64,000 nucleotides of DNA, taken from the NCBI GenBank assembly GCA_965203805.1, contig OZ241917.1, positions 1,792,001 through 1,856,000 on the forward strand, written 5' to 3'. Below, piece by piece: positions 25,217 to 46,076 of the stretch (position 1 is the stretch's first letter; each line of letters starts with the position of its first letter). Source of the DNA: Candidatus Latescibacterota bacterium (lineage in GTDB: Bacteria; Latescibacterota; UBA2968; GCA-2709665). Position numbers and translations under genes: made by a program. The notes beneath the pieces were generated by a model that had not been told where the DNA came from, made no database searches, and saw only the letters and a list, made by a program, of their open reading frames with translations.

Positions 25217-27334
25217 GTGAAATCCGGCACCGACTGGAAATCCCGCATACGTCCCGACCACCCCCGGATCTTCATCAACGGCGACACGCTGCCGGCGATC
25301 CGCGCGCGCGCCGCGGGCGGCTGCAACGACCACTACCTCAAGGTCAGGTCGTTCGCCGAGTCGACGCCTGAGATGGAATGGGCCGCGATCGACAGGCCGC
25401 CGCCCCTGCCCGACGGCACGGAAGTGCGCGATTGGGGCCATCGGATGATGTGCTCCGCCATCGTCCATCTCGTGGAACCTTCGGCCGACCGACTTACACG
25501 GCTCATTTCCGAACTGCGCGCGAGCGCGGAATACTACCACGCCTGTTACGCGGAGGACGAATCCGTCAACTGGTATGCCGCGAGCCGCGCCGCATGCCTG
25601 GTTACCCTGGACTGGATCTGGAATGAACTCGCCCCGGAGGACCGGCGCGAGACCGGCCTGCGTCTGCTGGACCACGTGGACGAAGCGCTTCACAAGCCCG
25701 GCATCCGTCGCCGCAACGGTTCCGACCACCGCAGCGGATTCTACGGCGCGCCCAGCCTGGCCTGGTTCGCGGGCCTCCTGCTTTACGGGGAAGGCATCGA
25801 CGACGATCGGGCGGCCCGTTTTCTCGATCGGGGCCACGACGACCACATCAAGCTGCTGGATCACCGCGCCGCCGCGTGCGGCGACGACGGCGGCGAAGCC
25901 TCGCCCACGCTCGGATACGCGTTCGGCGAATACCCCCTGGCGCAATGGAACTTCATCCATACCCTCGAATCGTCGACCGGTGAAGACATTTCCGAAATCT
26001 GGCCGCACATCCGCATGTTTCCCAACTATGTCATCTGGAACTGGCTTCCCGGCGACCTCGAGTTCGGGTACGGCGACAATGCACACACCGATAACCGCAT
26101 GCGGACAAACTGGATGTACACCCATATGTCCCACATCATGCACTTTTTCGGCGGGACCCATCCGGAGTGGGCCGGACTGGCGCGGTACATCCGGGACATG
26201 GCCGGCGGCGGATTCGCGGCGGACAAGTGGCCGATCTACCCGTTTCTGCTTGACGGTCTGGATATTGCGCCTCCGGCTCGAGGGCCGGGCATCCTTCCGC
26301 CCGCCCGTCATTTCGAGAACCTGGGTCATATTTTCATGCGTTCAGGTTCCAGTGACGACGACACGTATGCCCTGTTTTGCGGCGGGGGAAACCTTAGAAG
26401 CCACCGCCATTACGACGCCACCCACTTTACGATCTTCAAGAACGGATTCCTTGCGCTTGACAGCGGCACACGCCAGGGAAACACCGACAACCTGCAGAAC
26501 TACTACGCGCAGACCGTCGCCCACAACTGCGTCCTTATCAAGATGCCCGGCGAGGCGCCATCGCCGTACTGGAACGGCGAGGTCTACGGGCAGGCCGGTG
26601 GACAGAACAATACAATCGGCTCGGTGATTACCGCTTTCGAAACCAACCCCGAATTCACATACGTCGCCGCCGACGCCACTGCGGTCTACAATGCCGAGAA
26701 ATGCGCCCTCATGGTCCGGCAGTTCATCTTTCTGCCGCCCGACCATTTCGTCGTATTCGACCGGGTCACGTCCACCTGCGCCGGGTACGCCAAGACCTGG
26801 CTTCTGCACCATGCCAACGAACCCGTGGTCGACGGCGCCTCATGGCGGTCGGACCAGCATCAGGGACGCATTATTGCGCGGACACTATTACCGGAAGACG
26901 CCGTGCTGGAAAAGGTCGGCGGGCCGGGCAGGGAATTCCTCGCCGACGGCGTCAACTATGCGATCGACGAGGGCCCGTCGCGGCTCATCGTTGAGAACAA
27001 ATATCCGATCGGCAGGATGCAGTACGACGAAATTCCCGAGCTTATGGGCCGCTGGCGGATGGAAGTCAGACCGGGCACGGCCCGCAAAGAAGACCTGTTC
27101 CTGCATCTCATACAGGTGGGAGATCGGAATCTGCAAAGGATGGACGAAGCGGATGTCAGCGTCTCCCGGACCGGCGTCGAACTCGACTTCATCGCGTGCG
27201 GCAGTCGCGTCGTGATCTCATTCGCGGCCTCCGGAAAGACTGCCGGCCATATCACGTGTGTGCGGAACGGGGAGCGGCTTGCAGACAAGGACCTTGCCGT
27301 GGTTGTACAGGCCCAGGCCGGTCTCGCCGCATAA
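25217..27334 (+). CDS. Heparinase II/III-family polysaccharide lyase
   Basis: HPRIF N-terminus, FMRSG, HRHYDATHFTIFKNGFLALDSG, TVAHN, FVVFDRV, FLHLIQV. Confidence 0.85.
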   Translation: MKSGTDWKSRIRPDHPRIFINGDTLPAIRARAAGGCNDHYLKVRSFAESTPEMEWAAIDRPPPLPDGTEVRDWGHRMMCSAIVHLVEPSADRLTRLISELRASAEYYHACYAEDESVNWYAASRAACLVTLDWIWNELAPEDRRETGLRLLDHVDEALHKPGIRRRNGSDHRSGFYGAPSLAWFAGLLLYGEGIDDDRAARFLDRGHDDHIKLLDHRAAACGDDGGEASPTLGYAFGEYPLAQWNFIHTLESSTGEDISEIWPHIRMFPNYVIWNWLPGDLEFGYGDNAHTDNRMRTNWMYTHMSHIMHFFGGTHPEWAGLARYIRDMAGGGFAADKWPIYPFLLDGLDIAPPARGPGILPPARHFENLGHIFMRSGSSDDDTYALFCGGGNLRSHRHYDATHFTIFKNGFLALDSGTRQGNTDNLQNYYAQTVAHNCVLIKMPGEAPSPYWNGEVYGQAGGQNNTIGSVITAFETNPEFTYVAADATAVYNAEKCALMVRQFIFLPPDHFVVFDRVTSTCAGYAKTWLLHHANEPVVDGASWRSDQHQGRIIARTLLPEDAVLEKVGGPGREFLADGVNYAIDEGPSRLIVENKYPIGRMQYDEIPELMGRWRMEVRPGTARKEDLFLHLIQVGDRNLQRMDEADVSVSRTGVELDFIACGSRVVISFAASGKTAGHITCVRNGERLADKDLAVVVQAQAGLAA

Positions 27335-27398
27335 GGGCAGGTTCTGGCGGGCAGATGAAGGGTTTCAAGTTTCTCACCTTTTGACGAAGAGAGGCCAG

Positions 27399-28301
27399 AT
27401 GACCGAATTTCGGGGCATCTACCCCGCGCTGATCACACCGATGACGCATGAAGGCGAATTCAGCGAAGCGGCCTTCCGACGACTCATGGAATACAACATA
27501 AGTGCCGGGGCGCACGGCTTCTGGGTAGCGGGCGGGGCCGGCGAGAGCGTATTGCTGGAAGACGAGGAGAATTCACGCATTGCCGGAATCGCCGCCGACC
27601 AGGCGGCCGGCCGCGCGGGAATCATCATGCACGTGGGGGCGCCTACCACCGCGCGCGCCGCCAGGATGGCAGAAAACGCAGCAAAGGCCGGCGTTGACGC
27701 CATCTGCGCCGTACCTCCTTTCTTCTACCGGCCCGGGCCCGACGAGGTCGCAGAACACTACCGGGCGGTCGGCGCGGCCGTGGACCTTCCGCTCTTCATC
27801 TACAACATTCCCGGCGCGACCGGCGTCGAGATCACACTTGAACTGGCGGAAAGGATTCAGCAGCACGTGCCGCAACTCGCCGGACTGAAGCATTCTGCGC
27901 CCGCGTTTGCAAACACCCGTCATTTCGCCAGTATGGGCCTTTCGTGCCTCATCGGCAGCGCGGCGCTTCTCCTTCCCGCGCTCACCATCGGCGCTTCGGG
28001 CTGCGTGGATGGCCCCCTTTCGCTTTCTCCGGACGTCTGGGTCAATATCTGGACGGCGTATCACCGCGGCGACATGAAATCCGCCGAGGCCGACCAGCAA
28101 CGGGCGGCTGAACTTTATACGATCTTCAACCGAGCCGGATATATCGCGTCCATGAAGGCCCTGCTATCCGAGAAACTCGGGATCGACTGCGGGGACCCGC
28201 GTCCCCCGCAGCGTCCGCTCACCAGCGAAGAGAAGGCCTTTGTCATCCGGACGGCGAAAGGGCTGGGGATGATGGATACCGAAAGTCCGTCCCGCCACTG
28301 A
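27399..28301 (+). CDS. DHDPS/N-acetylneuraminate lyase-family aldolase
   Basis: GIYPALITP, GGAGE, VPPFF, YNIP, GLKHS Schiff-base Lys. Confidence 0.9.
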   Translation: MTEFRGIYPALITPMTHEGEFSEAAFRRLMEYNISAGAHGFWVAGGAGESVLLEDEENSRIAGIAADQAAGRAGIIMHVGAPTTARAARMAENAAKAGVDAICAVPPFFYRPGPDEVAEHYRAVGAAVDLPLFIYNIPGATGVEITLELAERIQQHVPQLAGLKHSAPAFANTRHFASMGLSCLIGSAALLLPALTIGASGCVDGPLSLSPDVWVNIWTAYHRGDMKSAEADQQRAAELYTIFNRAGYIASMKALLSEKLGIDCGDPRPPQRPLTSEEKAFVIRTAKGLGMMDTESPSRH

Positions 28302-28377
28302 CCGATCAGGACCATGTCGATGAACCGGTCCGTCGCTTCGTGCGACACGTTGAACCCCGTTAACGGAGATTATACAT

Positions 28378-29289
28378 ATGATCCCCCTGCTCAGCAGCCT
28401 GTGCTACGGACCGCTTGAAGTCTGCCAGCTTCCAAGGACGTGGTGGAAAGTCCTGCTCCGGAACGCGGGCATTCTCGACGAAGAGTATCCCGACGTCAGC
28501 GAAGGCCTGGACAAGTCCGTCCTTGAAGTGCTGAATCTGGACAAAGAGACGACCCTGGCGTATCTGAAGGAGCACATGCCCGACTACCTCCGGTTCGAAG
28601 CCTGGGTCCTCGAACAGAACGACGGAACGCTCGATCGAGAGGCAATCGACAACTGGAACGATTCCGTGCGCGCCCGCGTTCATACCAGGCCGGACAAGCT
28701 CGAAGAAACCACGGGCGACATCGGTATTCCCAACGACGGCGCGATCACATCGGCCGTGATCCTCAACAGCCTCCAGGACTGGATGCTCTTCTACAGACGG
28801 GATCTGGCGGGGGGATTCCCATCCCTGGGCGGCCGCGTGGTTCCCCTCGTCTCCAGCCTGGACTACGGTCCTCTTAACGTCTGCCAGCTCCCTCGAACGT
28901 GGCTGAAGATTCTGCTCAGGTCCAGGAATCTGCTTCACCCGGACTATCCCGACATGACCGAAGACGGACTGGACCCCCGCGTTCTGCGCACTGTCAACAT
29001 CCGGCCGGACGACGCCGTCTGTTTCATCAGAGACAATGCGCCTGCCTATCTCGACTTCGAAGCGTGGGTTCTGCAGCGAAACGACGACAGTGTCGACCCA
29101 CGCGCCGTGGACGAGTGGAACAGCTTTGTGCGAACCCGCATCCATACCGATGAGAAAATCGTTGATATTCATAGTACGCTGGGCCTGGAAAACGACGGAA
29201 GCCCGACCTCCGCCGTCGTCCTGAACCACGTTGAAGACTGGCACTTCGCGCACGCCGACCTGACGGGCAACACCGCCGGCTCGACCTGA
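28378..29289 (+). CDS. Protein with two tandem DUF5069-like domains
   Basis: Two ~145-aa internal repeats (PLxSSLxYGPLxVCQLPRTW.K...FEAWV...WN...SAVxLNxxxDW); GGAG RBS; family name from memory. Confidence 0.75.
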   Translation: MIPLLSSLCYGPLEVCQLPRTWWKVLLRNAGILDEEYPDVSEGLDKSVLEVLNLDKETTLAYLKEHMPDYLRFEAWVLEQNDGTLDREAIDNWNDSVRARVHTRPDKLEETTGDIGIPNDGAITSAVILNSLQDWMLFYRRDLAGGFPSLGGRVVPLVSSLDYGPLNVCQLPRTWLKILLRSRNLLHPDYPDMTEDGLDPRVLRTVNIRPDDAVCFIRDNAPAYLDFEAWVLQRNDDSVDPRAVDEWNSFVRTRIHTDEKIVDIHSTLGLENDGSPTSAVVLNHVEDWHFAHADLTGNTAGST

Positions 29290-29413
29290 CCGGCTACGGC
29301 GTCGGCTGAAGACCGCCGCGGTTCTCTGCATGACGATGATGACCAGAGACGCTCGTCCGTTTCGACATTCGATCAGCGATCAATTCTCGCCGTTTGGTCA
29401 ACGCAAGGCTCAA

Positions 29414-29473
29414 GTCAATCAAAGTCTCTTCATGGGGTTTAGTCACAGTTGACCAAGGTAATTACTTGAATCA
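29414..29473 (+). repeat. AATCA-rich conserved element, copy 1 of 4
   Basis: gtcaatcaaagtctcttcatggggtttagtca...ggtaattacttgaatca aligns with copies at 30028, 32726, 34421. Confidence 0.85.
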
Positions 29474-29508
29474 CAGTCAGGTGAGGATCCGGCGAGTTCA
29501 TTTAGTTG

Positions 29509-29537
29509 TTGACATCGCCCTACCGATGAATTAAAAT
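29509..29537 (+). promoter_or_regulatory. Near-consensus sigma70 promoter
   Basis: TTGACA-17 nt-TAAAAT in an AT-rich patch. Confidence 0.75.
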
Positions 29538-29699
29538 ACGATTAAATTTACGTATTAGTAGAATTTACACGTCACGTAAACAGCGCGGCCGATCTTTCGT
29601 GTGCAGCCCCTGTTCCCAGCACGACACCGGGCGGCAGGAAGGCACAAAGCCCTGAACAGGGGTCGCAGGTCGTGATCGGCTGAACATCTGTTCAATTGC

Positions 29700-29990
29700 A
29701 TTCCCGGACCTGACCGCAGGGAATGAAGGAGGTGATAATCGAACCAACATCATCAGGCCTATTGCTGCTCTCCGTCTTATTGCAGTCGATGATCGGCTGT
29801 ACAATTGGTCGATGCCGTTCGCCGAACGGTTCGGATGAAAAAGGGAGGTGATAGTCGAAACCACGTCGCCAAACGTTTTGCCGATGTACATCTACGTGAG
29901 AAACTGTGGCTCGGGGCAACTCCCGAAATGACCCGTTGCGCTGTGTGTGATCAATCGATTCCGATTAAATCGTACACCGCGTCTCTTCAG
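29700..29990 (+). repeat. Leader module A: 116-nt tandem units with AAGGAGGTGAT motifs and coupled micro-ORFs (29732-29851, 29848-29931)
   Basis: Ungapped similarity to 32400-32680; motifs at 29726 and 29842. Confidence 0.75.
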
Positions 29991-30027
29991 ATTACAGGCA
30001 TACCTTCCAGGTCGATCCCAGAATCCC

Positions 30028-30087
30028 ATCAGGCACAGTCTCTTCATACGGTTTCATCTCAGTAAATCCCTCGTATTCACTTGAATC
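30028..30087 (+). repeat. AATCA-rich conserved element, copy 2 of 4
   Basis: atcaggcacagtctcttcatacggtttcatctc...cgtattcacttgaatc. Confidence 0.85.
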
Positions 30088-30119
30088 GGTGTCCGTGGGG
30101 CGGTTGGGCTGTACGCCTG

Positions 30120-30895
30120 TCGCATGAATCACGGGGCTCGCCGGATTCTTGTGATTCACTGTCCGGGGTGGGATTGGGTGGCGCGCCCTGCGCCTTCCGT
30201 CAAGGTTGATCTCCCTGTAATCGCGTGATTCACAGTCCGAATTGCGTCTGGGTAGCATGCCGTGCATCCTCATGACGGCAAAAACGCGAATCATATGATT
30301 CGCGTTTCGAGGGGCGGCTGGCCTGAGCGCCTTCCGCTTTAATCACGGCAATCATTCGAGTCATATGTATCGCAGTCCGGGTTGTGGATGAGCGGCGCGC
30401 CCTGCGTCCTCATTGCGGTTGATCTTCCTGCGTTCACGTGAGTCACTGCCCCTGGTGGCCGATGGATGGCGGGTCCTGCGCTCGAATCACGATTTTTCAC
30501 CCCGTTTTCTTGCATCGCTGCCCCGCGTGTGGCCGAGCGGCGCGTCCTGCGCATCTATTGCGCTTGCTCTTCCTGTATTCACGTGGGTCACTGTCCCTGG
30601 TGGCCGCTGGGTGGCAGGTCCTGTGCTCTCATCACAGGGTTTCACCGCCGGCGTATGATTCGCATTCCGTGGCGCGGCCGGGCTGCAAGCCTTCCGCCTT
30701 GATCACGGAAATCATTCGAATCACACGAATCACAGGCGGGGTGCGGTTCGGCGACGTGTCTACCGCTTCAATTTCCCAGTAAATCAACATGAACACGGGC
30801 ATCACGGTCCTGGTGCGGCCGAGCGGCGTGGCATCCGCTCGATTCTGCCGGCTGTTGCCGGTACCCGCCAGACCTTGTGTATTCACGTGGCAGTG
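30120..30895. repeat. Degenerate non-coding repeat tract
   Basis: Direct repeats 30390-30501/30535-30647 and 30294-30363/30654-30723; partial copies at 30181 and ~30820. Confidence 0.8.
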
Positions 30896-30966
30896 CGGCA
30901 GGACGTGCGGTTTGAACAATGTCAATACGTCTAGTCAAAGTCATTCGTGTCAGGGAGGGCGTTCAG

Positions 30967-32268
30967 ATGAACAGGACATCAATATTGAGCACTGTTCTTC
31001 TAGTGGCGGCTGCCTTGTTCGCACAGGCCGCCCGTGCTCAGGACTACAATCGCTGGAGCCTGCCCGATGGCGCCCGCATGCGTCTGGGCAAAGGAACCGT
31101 GCGCGACGTGGCATGGTCGCCGGACGGAAACCGTCTGGCAGTGGGAGGCAGCATCGGCATCTGGCTCTACGATGCCCGCACCGGGGCGCAGACTCGCCTG
31201 ATCACAGGCCATTCGTTCCGAGTCAATGCGGTGGCGTTTTCGCCGGATGGATCAACGCTGGCCAGCGGTGGCACCGACCTCAGAGTGCAGTTGTGGGACA
31301 CGGCCACAGGGCAAGATATACGCACCCTCACGGGACATACCGCGTCGGTCAGGTCGGTGGCGTTTTCGCCGGATGGCGCGACGCTGGCAAGCGGCAGTTT
31401 CGACGGGACGGTGCGGGTGTGGGAGGTGGCCACAGGAAAGGAAAAACACGCCCTGTCGGGACATTCGCGGTTTGTCTGGTCGGTGGCGTTTTCGCCGGAC
31501 GGGAAAACGCTTGCAAGCGCGGGCGGCACCGACCTTACGGCGCGGGTGTGGGACGTGGCCGCAGGGCAGGAAAAACACGTCCTGACGGGACACGCGGCCA
31601 TCGTCTATTCGGTGGCGTTTTCGCCGGATGGCAGAACGCTGGCAAGTTCCAGTCAGGACAGGACGATTCGGTTGTGGGACGTGGTCACAGGGAACGAGAA
31701 AAATACGCTCCCAGGACATTCCCGCTGGATCTATTCGGTGGCGTTTTCACCCGATGGGACGACGCTTGCAGGCCCCGATGGCGATGGTACGGTGAGGGTG
31801 TGGGACGCGGCCACAGGACAGCTTATTCGCACCCACACCGCATATAAAGAGAGTTTCTTGTCGGTGGCGTTTTCGCCCGACGGGGCAACGCTCGCAACCG
31901 GCAGTCTGCGCAATCCGGTGTGGTTGTGGGACATGGCCACAGGGCAGGATATACGCACCTTCACGGGACATACCTTTCCGGTCAGTTCGGTGGTGTTTTC
32001 TCCCGATGGGAAAACGCTGGCAAGCGGCAGTTACGACGGTACGATATTGCTGTGGGATGTCTCGTCACGCGCCGCACTGCAACCCCTTGTCGCAGACTTC
32101 GACGGCGACGGGGCCGTGGGTTTTTCCGACTACCTGCAATTCGTCGCGAAGTACGGGCTGAGCTGGGGAGACGCGGGATATGACGCGCGCTTCGATCTCA
32201 ACGGCGACGGTACCGTCTCGTACGGCGACTGGACGATCTTCAGACGCAGCTTCGGCCGGGGTGGATGA
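30967..32268 (+). CDS. Exported WD40-repeat protein (8 repeats) with C-terminal dockerin/EF-hand-like domain
   Basis: Signal peptide ending ARA-QDY, 8 xSPDG.TLA...WD repeats, ADFDGDGAVGFSDY...FDLNGDG; GGAGG RBS before ATG 30967. Confidence 0.93.
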   Translation: MNRTSILSTVLLVAAALFAQAARAQDYNRWSLPDGARMRLGKGTVRDVAWSPDGNRLAVGGSIGIWLYDARTGAQTRLITGHSFRVNAVAFSPDGSTLASGGTDLRVQLWDTATGQDIRTLTGHTASVRSVAFSPDGATLASGSFDGTVRVWEVATGKEKHALSGHSRFVWSVAFSPDGKTLASAGGTDLTARVWDVAAGQEKHVLTGHAAIVYSVAFSPDGRTLASSSQDRTIRLWDVVTGNEKNTLPGHSRWIYSVAFSPDGTTLAGPDGDGTVRVWDAATGQLIRTHTAYKESFLSVAFSPDGATLATGSLRNPVWLWDMATGQDIRTFTGHTFPVSSVVFSPDGKTLASGSYDGTILLWDVSSRAALQPLVADFDGDGAVGFSDYLQFVAKYGLSWGDAGYDARFDLNGDGTVSYGDWTIFRRSFGRGG

Positions 32269-32399
32269 GGCGCGGGCGCTGTGTTAGACACAGGTCGCGA
32301 CAGATCTGCATTATTGAAAGGAATCCAACCCCTTCTGGCGGGATTCCGGCACGGGTGCTGAAGCCTTGACGGACATCTGTCTTAATAATCCATCGATCA

Positions 32400-32680
32400 C
32401 CCGATCCGACCGCGTCCGGGAAGGAGGTGATTTTTGAATCAACGTCATTAAACGTCCAACCGCTGCACGTCATTCCAGTTGAGGTGATCGGCTGTGCATG
32501 TGGCCTACGCCGCTCATCGACCTCGCCGAATTCTGAAAGGAGGTGATATCTGAATCCACGTCCTTAGACGTCTTACCGATTCACGTTTTGGCGAAATTGC
32601 AGGGCTCGGAGCAGGTGATGAACTGAGACTTTGCGCAATGAGAGATGTCGATCAATGTGGCCGATCATTGAACACCGGGG
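32400..32680 (+). repeat. Leader module B: paralog of module A (micro-ORFs 32427-32546, 32543-32626)
   Basis: AAGGAGGTGAT at 32421 and 32537, same 116-nt spacing as module A. Confidence 0.75.
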
Positions 32681-32725
32681 CGCCGCTTGTCGCCATCACT
32701 CGCTCAATGTCATAACAAGAGCCAT

Positions 32726-32785
32726 ATCAATCACGGTCTCTTCATGGGTTTAATCAGCCTTTAATCACCGTAATCACTTGAATCA
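32726..32785 (+). repeat. AATCA-rich conserved element, copy 3 of 4
   Basis: atcaatcacggtctcttcatgggtttaatca...cgtaatcacttgaatca, ending ~20 nt before the ATG at 32806. Confidence 0.85.
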
Positions 32786-32805
32786 CCTTCAGGGAGAGTA
32801 TTTAG

Positions 32806-34377
32806 ATGAAAAAGCTAACGATTTTGGGCCTCATTTTTCTCTCGACGTCCGCCTTGTTCACACAGTTCACCCACGCGCAGGACTACAATCGCTGGCGCCT
32901 GCCAGAAGGCGCCATTATGCGTCTGGGCAAAGGGTACGTGTGGGACGTGGCATGGTCGCCGGACCGCACGCGCCTGGCCGTCGGGGGTACCGCCGGCATC
33001 TGGGTCTACGATGCGAGCACCGGAGAGGAAGTTTCCCTGATCACTGGACATTCCTTCAGAGTCAATGCCGTTGCGTTTTCACCCGATGGTCTGACGCTGG
33101 CAAGCGGCAGTCGCGACGATACGGTGCGGTTGTGGGACGTGGCCACAGGACAGGAAAGAAGCATCCTCACGGGACACAGGTACGACGTCGAGGCGGTGGC
33201 ATTCTCGCCGGATGGGACGACGCTGGCAAGCGGCAGTCGCGACGGCACGGTGCGGGTGTGGGATGTGGCCACGGGGCAGGAAAAGAGCACCCTCGTAGAT
33301 GAAAAGTACCGGGGCAACTTGAATAGCCCCTGGGTCGTGTCCGTGGTGTTTTCACCCGATGGTCAGACGCTTGCAAGCGCCAATCGGGACACGACGGTGC
33401 GGGTATGGGACGTGAACACGGGGCAACAAAAACACACGCTCACGAGACATACCGGGAGGGTATGGTCGGTGGCGTTCTCGCCCGATGGCAAGACACTTGC
33501 CAGTGCAAGTCTCGACAGTACGGTGCGGTTGTGGGACGCGGTCACAGGGCAGGAGAAAGACACCCTCGAAGGACATACGGGCACCGTAAGGACTGTGGCG
33601 TTCTCGCCGGATGGGAAGACACTGGCGAGTGGTGGCGGCTATCGCGATGAAACGATGAAGCTGTGGGACGTGAACACAGGACAGGAGAAATATACCCTCA
33701 CAGCACATACCGATGATGTCTCTTCGGTGGCGTTTTCCCCCGATGGTCAGACCCTGGCAAGCGCAAGTCACGACCAAACGGTGCGATTGTGGGATCCGGC
33801 AACCGGGCAAGAAAAAATCACCCTCACAGATCACACTCAGGCGATCCAGGGGGTGGCGTTTTCGCCCGATGGGGCAACGCTGGCAAGCGCCGATATCAGG
33901 GGTACGGTGCGGTTGTGGGACACGGCCACCGGGCAGCATTTGCGCACCCTCACTGGCGATAATTTCCGTTCGTTGGCGTATTCGCCGGATGGGATGACGC
34001 TGGCAACCGGCAGTGCGCATAAGGCGGTATGGCTGTGGGACGTGGCCACAGGGCAGAATATACGCGGCCTTACGGGACATACCGATCCGATCAATTCAGT
34101 TGTGTTTTCGCCCGATGGCAGAACGCTTGCAAGCGCGAGTTACGACGGTACGATTCTGCTGTGGGATGTCTCGTCACGTGCCACGCTGCAGCCCCTTGCC
34201 GCCGACTTCGACGGCGACGGCACCGTGGGCTTTACCGACTTTCTGCAATTCGTCGCGAAGTACGGGCTGCGCTGGGGAGATGCGGGATATGACGCGCGTT
34301 TCGACCTTGACGGCGATGGAGAGGTCGGGTCCTGGGATTGGCGGATCTTCGGCCAAAGCTTCGGCAGGGGTGGATGA
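32806..34377 (+). CDS. Exported WD40-repeat protein (10 repeats) with C-terminal dockerin/EF-hand-like domain
   Basis: Signal peptide ending THA-QDY, 10 SPD repeats, ADFDGDGTVGFTDF...FDLDGDG; paralog of 30967-32268. Confidence 0.95.
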   Translation: MKKLTILGLIFLSTSALFTQFTHAQDYNRWRLPEGAIMRLGKGYVWDVAWSPDRTRLAVGGTAGIWVYDASTGEEVSLITGHSFRVNAVAFSPDGLTLASGSRDDTVRLWDVATGQERSILTGHRYDVEAVAFSPDGTTLASGSRDGTVRVWDVATGQEKSTLVDEKYRGNLNSPWVVSVVFSPDGQTLASANRDTTVRVWDVNTGQQKHTLTRHTGRVWSVAFSPDGKTLASASLDSTVRLWDAVTGQEKDTLEGHTGTVRTVAFSPDGKTLASGGGYRDETMKLWDVNTGQEKYTLTAHTDDVSSVAFSPDGQTLASASHDQTVRLWDPATGQEKITLTDHTQAIQGVAFSPDGATLASADIRGTVRLWDTATGQHLRTLTGDNFRSLAYSPDGMTLATGSAHKAVWLWDVATGQNIRGLTGHTDPINSVVFSPDGRTLASASYDGTILLWDVSSRATLQPLAADFDGDGTVGFTDFLQFVAKYGLRWGDAGYDARFDLDGDGEVGSWDWRIFGQSFGRGG

Positions 34378-34420
34378 GACACGGGCGCCCTCACTCGCTC
34401 CAGGTCGTCACAGGAATCAC

Positions 34421-34483
34421 ATCAATCACAGTCTCTACATCGTGGGTTAAATCATAGTCCACCATCGTATTCACCGTGAATCA
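34421..34483 (+). repeat. AATCA-rich conserved element, copy 4 of 4
   Basis: atcaatcacagtctctacatcgtgggttaaatca...cgtattcaccgtgaatca, just before the AAGGAGG RBS of 34505. Confidence 0.85.
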
Positions 34484-34504
34484 GCAGGTCAAAGGAGGCA
34501 GAAA

Positions 34505-35683
34505 ATGGATCGTGAAGACATCAGGGAAAGATTGGAAACGCTGGAAGCGAGGCTGCGCTGGCAGAAACGGGCAATCGCAGGTCTGGTCGTTGTTTTCCTA
34601 TTCAGCGCGTCGCCGGCATTGACGCAGGCATCGAAGTGGTTTGGTAGTATACTGCCGTCTAAGCTGGCTTCACTAAACTTTCGAGACGGAACGCCTACAG
34701 CCGACGTGCGATTCGACGAACTTTCGCCAAACGAGCCGGAAATCCCACTACCGGAGACCGGTTACGGCGGACTGAGCAAGATCGCTCCTGAGACAATCGC
34801 CGATGCCGGAGACACATTGCGGGTGGGTGAACTTCAGATCGTAAATGCAAGTGGCGCGGTTGTCGCAGCAATCGGGGCGGGTCAGTCCGGAAATGGCGCG
34901 CTGGTGATCAGGAACAGTAATGGCGACGTGGTGTCCGTTGTGGGCGTCGATTCCAGGGGGAACGGTACCGTGGGGCTCCTCAACGCGGCAGGTCGGATCA
35001 CGGCCGCCATGGGCGCGGATCGGACGGGTGACGCCAATGGCGTCGTCGACGTCAAGAGCGCAACGGGTTCCGCGGCGGCACTCGCCTTTGATGGGGTCGG
35101 CGACGCTGCCATCACGGTGTTCAACAAAGACAAAAAGGTGGTTTCCGGATTCGGCATCGACAACATTGGTAATGGAGCCCTTCGTATTGCGAACGCGGCG
35201 GGAAGATTCATTGCCGCAATTGGCGCCGATGACACGGAGGAGGCCAATGGATGGATGGATGTCAGAAATGCGTCAGGACCGGCGGCGGGCTTGTCCGTCG
35301 ACCGGGACGGAGACGGCCTTGTTATCGCGGGAAACCGGAACAACGATGAGGTTTCGATCATGGGCGCGAATGAGAATGGACACGGCATCATCGGATTCAA
35401 GCACGCGTCAGGGCGGGTTGTCGTTGGCATGGGGGCCGATTCGACCGGCGCAGGCGTGCTGAATATCGAGGGCGGCAGATTCCGGGCCTTTCTCGATGCC
35501 GACGGCAACGGAGTCGCGAAAACCCTGGGGCAGAACGGGAACCTTCGCTGGACCTCTGAAGTGTCTCCAGACCGTGACAGCGGCACATCCACGGGGCTGA
35601 TCGGGGATTTTGATGGTAATGGCAAGGTTGATTTCGCGGACTTTGTGACATTCGCCAGAAATTTCGGCAACTCCAGTGGATAG
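34505..35683 (+). CDS. Membrane-anchored/exported Gly-rich beta-repeat protein with C-terminal dockerin/EF-hand-like motif
   Basis: Short coiled coil plus hydrophobic segment, ~23-aa GxG-(h)x(h)-N..G repeats, GDFDGNGKVDFADFVTFARNFG. Confidence 0.8.
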   Translation: MDREDIRERLETLEARLRWQKRAIAGLVVVFLFSASPALTQASKWFGSILPSKLASLNFRDGTPTADVRFDELSPNEPEIPLPETGYGGLSKIAPETIADAGDTLRVGELQIVNASGAVVAAIGAGQSGNGALVIRNSNGDVVSVVGVDSRGNGTVGLLNAAGRITAAMGADRTGDANGVVDVKSATGSAAALAFDGVGDAAITVFNKDKKVVSGFGIDNIGNGALRIANAAGRFIAAIGADDTEEANGWMDVRNASGPAAGLSVDRDGDGLVIAGNRNNDEVSIMGANENGHGIIGFKHASGRVVVGMGADSTGAGVLNIEGGRFRAFLDADGNGVAKTLGQNGNLRWTSEVSPDRDSGTSTGLIGDFDGNGKVDFADFVTFARNFGNSSG

Positions 35684-45978: not shown

Positions 45979-46076
45979 TGGCGGGAATGTGTGGGAATCG
46001 AACCCACCCAGCGTGTGATTAGCACGCCGCAACGGGTTTGAAGCCCGCGAGGGCCACCAGTGCCCCATCCACTCCC
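45979..46076 (-). tRNA. selC: tRNA-Sec (anticodon UCA)
   Basis: 98 nt; anticodon arm gcggg-cTTCAAa-cccgt; long variable arm gcgtg..cacgc; T arm gtggg-TTCGATT-cccac; ends GCCA; follows selA-selB. Confidence 0.96.

Follow-up and report, generated by a model that had tools for sequence, protein, structure and literature searches.

A tandemly repeated Shine-Dalgarno-like module in the WD40-array leaders of a Latescibacterota genus: a candidate untranslated docking element for 30S subunits

Untranslated 5′ leaders that carry a stabilising Shine-Dalgarno (SD) sequence are already known from bacteria, to judge from the accessible parts of two reports (PMC12970973, PMC3997798). For cry3Aa of Bacillus thuringiensis, the available text of PMC12970973 describes transcription from position -558 followed by processing to a stable mRNA that is protected by an SD-like sequence called STAB-SD, which is credited to Agaisse & Lereclus 1996 in excerpts of PMC12970973, PMC7509114 and PMC3997798. 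Other 5′ stabilisers of Bacillus that depend on ribosome binding are the ermC, atpE, gsiB, hbs and aprE leaders (accessible parts of PMC3997798 and PMC5737220). Here we describe a conserved unit of ~116 nucleotides (nt) that occurs four times in a 64,000-nt stretch (the window) of a Candidatus Latescibacterota genome (assembly GCA_965203805.1, contig OZ241917.1, forward-strand positions 1,792,001 to 1,856,000), which consists of a single 5.87-Mb contig with 59% G+C. A first-pass annotation of the window had proposed an undescribed ribosome-engaging regulatory leader. A ribosome-engaging role stays the best reading of the data presented below; the coupled micropeptides offered as one form of it are rejected, and the word 'undescribed' has to be qualified in light of the SD stabilisers just cited. 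Our tentative proposal, to which we give a probability of about 45%, is that the unit serves as an untranslated, SD-like docking element for 30S ribosomal subunits in an mRNA leader.

The STAB-SD of cry3Aa would be the closest analogue of this unit. In both cases an SD sequence complementary to the 3′ end of 16S rRNA is apparently unused for initiation and stands well away from the start codon within a long 5′ untranslated region (a predicted one for the window), and in both cases the promoter is far upstream (at -558 for cry3Aa and at about -1430 for the first WD40-repeat gene of the window). The STAB-SD core is GAAAGGAGG, a sequence that would fall within the unit consensus GAAAGGAGGTGAT. 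In contrast to STAB-SD, the SD-like core of the unit sits in a conserved module of ~100 nt, often stands in tandem, is repeated before many genes of an array and has a longer complementarity of up to 13 nt, and its host belongs to a Latescibacterota lineage of metagenome-assembled genomes with RNase E/G and RNase Y, RNase J being undetected. The Bacillus stabilisers of the ermC type resemble the role proposed here, since downstream RNA is protected when a ribosome or a 30S subunit stays bound at a strong SD close to the 5′ end, whether or not the body of the message is translated. They mostly use the gene's own ribosome-binding site or a ribosome stalled on a leader peptide, whereas the unit is an orphan site without an open reading frame (ORF), hundreds of nt from the gene.

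Exactly four sites in the window match ARGGAGGTGAT with zero mismatches (29726, 29842, 32421 and 32537), and six match when up to one mismatch is allowed, against 1.67 expected. These four sites mark the four copies of the unit, two at locus 1 (29715-29946) and two at locus 2 (32410-32641), with a core-to-core distance of 116 nt at both loci, exactly as first annotated. The annotation had also aligned 29700-29990 with 32400-32680 without gaps. The duplication is real, with identities at a gapless offset of 2695 nt of 54% (29700-29819), 61% (29820-29939) and 33% (29940-29990), compared with a mean of 25% and a maximum of 34% at other gapless offsets. However, the homology spans ~240 nt rather than the full 290, fading past 29940, and the same extent is seen in repeat families D6, D8 and D13. 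The two halves within each locus are homologous as well (44-49% identity without gaps, 53-61% with gaps), so each locus is a tandem pair of one unit, and the pairwise identity among units 1a, 1b, 2a and 2b is 47-62% (Table 1). The shared sequence reported midway between the motifs was recovered as TGATCGGCTG, 64 nt past the first motif at both loci (29790 and 32485), with a third copy at 29673. A common region beginning ATCA..GTCTCTTCAT (repeat family D12), which contains the AATCA element of the annotation, follows the second motif at both loci, although its distance is 186 nt at locus 1 and 189 nt at locus 2 rather than 184-187 nt.

Each window unit opens with A(A/G)GGAGGTGAT, the exact complement of the 3′ end of the organism's own 16S rRNA. 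The 16S gene of this genome ends in ...GGATCACCTCCTTTCT and its rRNA tail is GAUCACCUCCUUUCU, of which the motif is a perfect complement; in unit 2b the core and the preceding GA together form 13 complementary nt. Such long sites are rare. Outside rRNA genes, the 5.87-Mb genome holds 10 sites of the form A(A/G)GGAGGTGAT, four of them in these units, and just two of the other six have a start codon 5-8 nt downstream and an ORF of at least 49 amino acids (aa). Real gene starts in the arrays carry GGGAGG or GGGGGG 7-8 nt before ATGAAAA. The organism thus uses SD-dependent initiation with a normal SD, and its ribosomes should recognise the motif.

An nhmmer profile made from the four window units matched only those four copies in their own genome. 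BLAST over 40 related genomes located homologous leaders in genomes of the same genus, and nhmmer applied to 16 stretches from 12 relatives yielded 60 further units, giving an alignment of 64 units from 13 genomes, the window's own included. The consensus of these units reads (C)CGCGTTCGGAAAGGAGGTGATATTGGAATCCACGTCG.TAAACGT....CCG..GTAC.T.TAC.TGA..., and its core GAAAGGAGGTGAT is a 13-nt perfect complement of the 16S tail of the window's genome. Of the 64 units, 49 have an uninterrupted complement to that tail of 9 nt or more, 37 one of 11 nt or more and 20 one of 13 nt or more. Behind the core, no start codon is conserved among the 64 units and variability is among the highest at the three positions that follow GATA, in agreement with the earlier remark that no ATG follows the motif at normal spacing.

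The range of the unit is narrow. A sequence-only covariance model, run against 53 genomes of the order, matched all 15 genomes of the genus (the window's own among them, and each a different species) with 1-13 copies each, none of seven genomes from the other four genera of the family and one of 31 genomes of the sister family, the latter through one weak match (E = 9e-4). Strong matches cluster at one locus per genome. Dispersed repeats, such as repetitive extragenic palindromes (REP) or miniature inverted-repeat transposable elements (MITE), would show a different pattern, since the four copies of the window's genome lie at one locus and the strong matches of relatives at one array locus. 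More distant loci that carry the 303-aa gene found upstream of locus 1 were also scanned for 16S-tail complements of at least 9 nt, and 39 of these 40 gave no plus-strand match downstream of the gene; at the distant locus L074, one cluster of such complements lies ~2.7 kb downstream of it. DNA runs that contain the stretch are mostly labelled sponge metagenome.

All 64 units are intergenic and co-oriented with genes. Those of relatives occupy the spacers of tandem arrays whose genes encode ~690 aa in the stretches examined up to L019, where several array spacers of 118-165 nt lack any unit. Among 46 unit-bearing spacers, 18 hold a tandem pair, with type A before type B, and the other 28 have one unit each. 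Within the pairs, the cores are 116 nt apart in nine of 18 cases, and the full range is 110 to 119 nt. An exact 116-nt spacing as required geometry is not borne out by these numbers, and we read the spacing as a reflection of tandem duplication. Homologues keep the core motif, and consistently keep neither the exact spacing nor the reading frames first described. As judged from these alignments, the unit is a genus-specific and locus-specific non-coding module of WD40-array spacers, and the original association of a conserved leader module with WD40 genes is supported.

Conservation within the spacers is uneven. In an alignment of 17 whole spacers, extended by 150 nt of coding sequence, mean column entropy was 0.39 for the 30 columns containing the core, the lowest in the spacer, compared with 0.8-1.1 in flanking spacer and 0.40-0.84 in adjacent coding sequence. 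Because the entropy of the core lies below that of its flanks, the constraint on it exceeds what gene conversion of whole spacers would produce. A rival explanation is that the unit might be a functionless by-product, in which unequal crossing-over amplified a duplicated pseudo-ribosome-binding site and its spacer DNA along with the WD40 genes, while gene conversion maintained the similarity of the copies. Such an origin would be compatible with the confinement of the unit to one array locus in one genus, with the presence of 0, 1 or 2 copies per spacer and of array genes that have no unit at all, and with the variation in spacing. It would also suit two loci, L019 and L023, where a type-A unit stands directly before the true ribosome-binding site of a 391-aa gene. 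The junction there, ...GCCGATCACC..CACGTT(T/C)GGAA(G/A)GG(A/G)G..A(G/A)(G/A)AAATGG, aligns through both the pre-core segment and the core with the pre-core junction of a following unit, ...GCCGGTCACGG..CGCGTTCGGAAAGGAGGTGATATTGG. Gene conversion alone, however, would homogenise all parts of a spacer equally, and the 5′ 60 nt of the unit are far better conserved than the flanking spacer, on par with coding sequence. Furthermore, the SD complement measures 9-13 nt in the units versus 5-8 nt in real ribosome-binding sites, which suggests strengthening rather than decay, and the unit has been retained in 15 of 15 species of the genus. We consequently regard a functionless by-product as quite unlikely. 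Given the alignment with a true ribosome-binding site, the SD-like core is probably descended from a genuine one that lost its start codon while its 16S complementarity lengthened. In the reading that we favour, tandem duplication multiplied the units (type A followed by type B, ~116 nt apart), and unequal crossing-over spread them through the array.

A different use of the same sequence had been suggested by the first-pass annotation, in which the GTG within each motif begins a micropeptide, the lengths being 39 and 27 aa and the two being coupled in translation. Reading from these internal GTGs gives all four peptides exactly as reported, all four ORFs are present in the window as described, and stops are rather rare in the GTG frame (1.6 per 100 codons over the 64 copies). 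Comparison among the copies nonetheless argues strongly against translation. In codon pairs that differ at one position, with the first 150 nt of the adjacent WD40 genes as a control, the synonymous fraction of the units is 0.27 in the GTG frame and 0.25-0.31 over all six frames, so no frame carries a coding signal, whereas the control gives a positive result of 0.49 with no stops in its true frame, and 0.18-0.35 in its off frames. Only 27% of the single differences in the GTG frame of the units fall at codon position 3, versus 47% in the control, in keeping with the caveat of the annotation itself that third-position bias was unclear. Column entropy over the 64 units lacks a 3-nt periodicity (phase values of 0.77, 0.80 and 0.83). 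Counted from the GTG, ORFs are between 8 and 80 codons long, and a 39-codon frame that ends in the TGA of the next motif occurs in four of 18 tandem pairs, the two pairs of the window included. The GTGA overlap arises automatically from a 116-nt period (3 x 38 + 2) whenever the frame stays open. The GTG also has no SD of its own at a working distance because it sits within the SD-like sequence itself, and a 2-nt insertion or deletion between unit 1b (GTGAGAAACTG) and the consensus columns of the model (GTGAAACTG) shifts the frame, which is consequently unaligned across the unit.

The micropeptide reading is thus already refuted at the level of comparative sequence analysis, and we give it almost no weight. 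Attenuation-type leader peptides and coupled small ORFs resemble the unit in that an SD-like leader sequence and short open frames occur together in the window's copies, but conservation in the unit extends neither to the frames and their lengths nor to the codon-position pattern. A decayed known gene had been named as one finding that would overturn the leader interpretation, and no such gene was detected. A blastx comparison of both leaders with 34,241 stop-to-stop ORFs (at least 80 aa) of the genome returned only their own frames and each other, with the next match at E = 0.13, and a Pfam search with the three longest ORFs that overlap the leaders gave a single match, to Ntox27, which at 13.8 bits (E = 0.057) stays below the cut-off of 24 and is at chance level. 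There is a general lesson in this outcome, in that a perfect SD and short similar ORFs in two paralogous copies do not amount to evidence of micropeptides, and here 64 homologues permit a clean rejection of the coding reading.

A conserved promoter precedes the units of locus 1. It is of the sigma-70 type, close to consensus, and located between the 303-aa gene and unit 1a (Table 1), and GTTGACA-N17-TTAAAAT/TTAAACT is found downstream of the 303-aa gene at 13 of 13 readable loci of the same genus, L038 having no downstream sequence. The first SD-like core follows the -10 box by ~50-55 nt at L027 and L028, compared with which the window has an extra ~120 nt, including a partial unit, between promoter and first core. 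Contigs from two metatranscriptome runs of one study cover much of the leader (29574-30276, 30297-30550, 29583-30073, 30075-30363 and 30477-30680). Both sets start within ~30 nt or less of the predicted transcription start, and a contig from a DNA run continues upstream of 29557. These starts are a weak hint at the 5′ end of an RNA, given that the contigs show neither strand nor ends and might reflect DNA carry-over. The segments 29300-29553 and 30697-31204 and locus 2 have no such cover, which is not evidence of absence, and matches inside the WD40 repeats stem from many organisms. Locus 2 may be co-transcribed with WD40-repeat gene 1.

An AT-rich palindrome, AATACG-ATTAAATTTA-CGTATT, follows directly after the -10 box and is also present at L027-L037, L065 and L066, with compensatory changes in its two arms from one genome to the next (ACG/CGT, ACC/GGT, ACCG/CGGGT). 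The palindrome could act as an operator across the transcription start, or could form a stem-loop at the 5′ terminus, and its single-sequence fold is no more stable than those of shuffled sequences (z = 0.2). The remainder of the ~1.4-kb leader, 30040-30900, shares 70-93% identity with its counterpart in related genomes. It consists of ~850 nt of degenerate tandem repeats with periods of ~145 and ~214 nt, lies in part under RNA-library contigs, and contains GATTCAC/AATCAC and GTCCGGG(G/T) elements that resemble decayed gene-proximal modules.

These observations make it appropriate to ask whether the units belong instead to a stand-alone, abundant non-coding RNA, running from ~29545 to ~30700 and acting in trans, for example as a 30S decoy. 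The conserved near-consensus promoter, the RNA contigs over 29574-30680 and a 1.4-kb stretch in which no credible ORF was found would all be expected of such a transcript. However, contigs cannot rank abundance or reveal ends and the uncovered stretches are uninformative, units also occur in short gene spacers that lack a promoter of their own, which fits a role in cis, and titration of ribosomes by the two to four sites in a cell's genome would require extreme expression. No Rfam family matches the region. A trans-acting RNA is therefore, in our judgement, distinctly improbable.

Spacers have a regular order from stop codon to start codon: the stop, a short palindrome, unit A (in long spacers only), unit B, CACTCGCTC, AATCAC repeats, a real SD and the ATG. 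In long spacers only, unit A is preceded by a G+C-rich inverted repeat and by TTGAC(G/C)-16/17-(T/A)TC(C/T)AT-CGATCACC. The gene-proximal module at the end of this order is ~100 nt long, with (T)TAATCA(C) repeats ~10-11 nt apart, and it directly precedes the real SD and start codon both in the WD40 genes and in the 392-aa gene. Four copies occur in the window (Table 1) and others elsewhere in the genome on the minus strand (3310884-3310945, 3320301-3320385 and 3307361-3307436). The phasing of the repeats suggests binding sites for a DNA-binding regulator.

The unit itself might similarly operate at the level of DNA, as a cis-regulatory platform for transcription factors or as part of a promoter. 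Its conservation is linear and no RNA structure was found in it (see below). The GGTGAT half of the motif and GGAATCCAC form an imperfect inverted repeat (GTGATA...AATCCAC) that is related to the AATCAC repeats at gene starts, which stand ~10 nt apart in every gene-proximal module, and AATCAC repeats at 29396-29485 and at genome position 3307436 lie directly upstream of sigma-70-like promoters. Moreover, the TTGAC(G/C)-16/17-(T/A)TC(C/T)AT sequence of long spacers lies ~35 nt before unit A, and a promoter scan flags CTGACC-18-GATAAT within unit 1a. Several features are difficult to reconcile with this explanation. Nothing in the AATCAC motif corresponds to the purine part GAAAGGAGG, which is as well conserved as GGTGAT, and the 13-nt match to the 16S tail would have to be accidental. 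Type-B units do not conserve the promoter-like hexamers, most of which lack the A at position 2 of the -10 element. Finally, the units of locus 1 are downstream of a strong conserved promoter and inside the stretch covered by RNA contigs. On balance we consider a DNA-level module unlikely.

Because the unit is a conserved intergenic element, co-oriented with genes and sometimes in tandem, it resembles riboswitches and other leader RNAs of Rfam, whereas it differs from them in having no Rfam match, consensus structure or covariation. At the gathering score, a search of Rfam returned nothing in the leaders (only tRNA-Sec, elsewhere in the window, passes), and at E up to 5 the region 29300-33000 gave three matches to small nucleolar or small regulatory RNAs, at chance level and far below the gathering score. 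RNAalifold found no consensus structure or covariation in the units, contrary to what a structured leader should have produced. The consensus energy was 0 to -0.4 kcal/mol for 25, 33 and 58 of the 64 units (subsets from which rows with at least 15 gaps in the first 105 columns were dropped) and 0 for all 64 extended units with 60-nt flanks, and no consensus structure emerged for the A and B subsets. A small helix of -6.5 kcal/mol appeared only in the promoter-proximal subset of 16 units.

Specific pairings were likewise rejected. Sequestration of the core by an upstream GATCACC/ATCTCC looks attractive in single folds, and its mean z is -0.27 over the 64 units against mononucleotide shuffles (z = -0.29 for the window's own hairpin). 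A long-range interaction between the core and the AATCAC(C) repeats beside the real ribosome-binding site gives a mean z of -0.41 over 17 spacers. The post-stop and leader hairpins also show no significant gain in stability over shuffled sequences (z = -1.8 and -1.5). Some type-A units in the arrays of relatives (L009-L016) carry a CTTTAAC segment, CTACTTTAACGCG, which is absent from the window's copies and which we take to resemble the boxA antitermination motif.

Among these explanations we continue to favour the untranslated docking element. Like STAB-SD, the unit complements the 16S 3′ end of its host and has no used start codon behind it. At locus 1 it follows a conserved promoter within a stretch covered by RNA contigs, which indicate neither strand nor ends and might reflect DNA carry-over. 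We propose that 30S subunits would dock on the SD-like core without initiating translation, and that a subunit bound near the 5′ end of the primary or a processed transcript could shield the long leader and the downstream cistron from decay that depends on access to the 5′ end. Local loading of ribosomes is a secondary possibility. Very long duplexes between SD and anti-SD sequences are reported to slow the release of initiating ribosomes, a behaviour more in line with a site that holds ribosomes than with one that starts translation.

Several observations weigh against the docking proposal. At locus 1, distances of ~180 and ~300 nt separate the two cores from the predicted transcription start, and >1.1 kb separates them from the ATG, far from the geometry of STAB-SD, and locus 2 has neither a convincing promoter nor RNA-contig cover (the latter being uninformative with regard to absence). 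RNase J, the 5′-to-3′ exonuclease that a bound 30S subunit blocks in the Bacillus precedent, was not found in the genome, where the best match to TIGR00649 scores 42.7 bits against a cut-off of 400. The genome instead carries one RNase E/G gene and two RNase Y genes, and the available text of PMC3997798 places the stabilising effect of SD sequences under organisms that lack RNase E. The full-length RNase Y genes are at genome positions 27065-28597 (+) and 5809483-5811009 (-), with scores of 586 and 636 bits. In addition, the predicted accessibility of the core is ordinary (the mean unpaired probability of GGAGG is 0.23, at the 43rd percentile), and the ~60 nt outside the core that are likewise conserved are left unexplained by docking. 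The SD-likeness of the core may be partly inherited from a true ribosome-binding site, and the co-orientation of units and genes is equally expected from their co-duplication and so is not independent evidence.

The docking proposal also has a bolder version. The unit might be a new kind of modular and stackable landing pad, in which ~100 nt of unstructured RNA, with a perfect 13-nt anti-16S core and further conserved contacts, holds non-initiating 30S subunits on long leaders. In a phylum without RNase J, such a pad would have to act by a route other than the STAB-SD mechanism of Bacillus. Candidate routes would be shielding from RNase E/G or RNase Y, blocking of Rho-dependent termination on a 1.4-kb untranslated leader, or feeding of ribosomes to the eukaryote-like WD40 genes that this sponge symbiont carries. 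We consider this extended scheme rather unlikely in its entirety.

The features of the window that concern the leaders are collected in Table 1, together with their neighbours. The 303-aa protein has an evident internal duplication and no Pfam family, is 43-91% identical across 54 loci of the Latescibacterota type, and in this genus its gene is always just upstream of the promoter and unit leader. The 392-aa protein, which closes the WD40 array and has its counterpart at L019 7512-8687, also lacks a Pfam family; it has an N-terminal coiled-coil-like segment with a hydrophobic stretch and a C-terminal DFDGNGKVDFADF that is dockerin-like by eye.

Table 1. Positions in the window of the units, promoter, leader segments and neighbouring genes
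Feature	Position	Strand	Evidence or remark
303-aa gene	28378..29289	+	
Proximal AATCAC module	29396..29485		
Sigma-70-type promoter TTGACA-17-TAAAAT heading the leader	29509..29537	+	11/12 consensus positions
AT-rich palindrome after the -10 box	29538..29562		
Cover by metatranscriptome contigs of a relative, ~92% identical	29557..30680	+	Runs X22, X23, one study
Partial unit, 3′ half of type A, with third GTGATCGGCTG	29672..29714	+	Repeat family D13 and extended-unit alignment
Unit 1a (type A); AAGGAGGTGAT 29726-29736, TGATCGGCTG 29790-29799	29715..29830	+	nhmmer E = 5e-26
Unit 1b (type B); AGGGAGGTGAT 29842-29852	29831..29946	+	nhmmer E = 8.9e-24
Decayed proximal AATCAC module	30006..30100	+	nhmmer E = 2.8e-10, proximal-module profile
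Repeat-rich remainder of the ~1.4-kb leader	30040..30900	+	Direct-repeat families D3, D4, D5, D9, D10
WD40-repeat gene 1, 433 aa	30967..32268	+	Pfam WD40 E = 4e-88; C-terminus dockerin-like by eye
Unit 2a (type A); AAGGAGGTGAT 32421-32431, TGATCGGCTG 32485-32494	32410..32525	+	nhmmer E = 1.5e-26
Unit 2b (type B); AAGGAGGTGAT 32537-32547	32526..32641	+	nhmmer E = 3.8e-25
Gene-proximal module: CACTCGCTC, AATCAC repeats ~10 nt apart, real SD GGGAGAG, ATG	32688..32806	+	nhmmer E = 7e-25
WD40-repeat gene 2, 523 aa	32806..34377	+	Pfam WD40 E = 2e-110
Proximal AATCAC module, no unit, before the 392-aa gene	34386..34486	+	nhmmer E = 3e-19
392-aa gene	34505..35683	+	
tRNA-Sec gene	45983..46076	-	Rfam RF01852, 73.4 bits

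A literature search on Latescibacteria, sponges, WD40, STAB-SD and Shine-Dalgarno stabilisers returned nothing on the leaders of this lineage, and the accessible part of PMC12993501 lists WD40 among eukaryotic-like proteins and in that part says nothing on leaders. If the docking proposal is correct, orphan SD sequences would serve as ribosome-docking leader elements outside the Firmicutes, and they would do so in a sponge-associated phylum that is uncultured and has other nucleases for RNA decay. The elements would also represent a modular form that duplicates and spreads with a gene array, and their presence would mark the eukaryote-like WD40 arrays of sponge symbionts as specially buffered in their expression.

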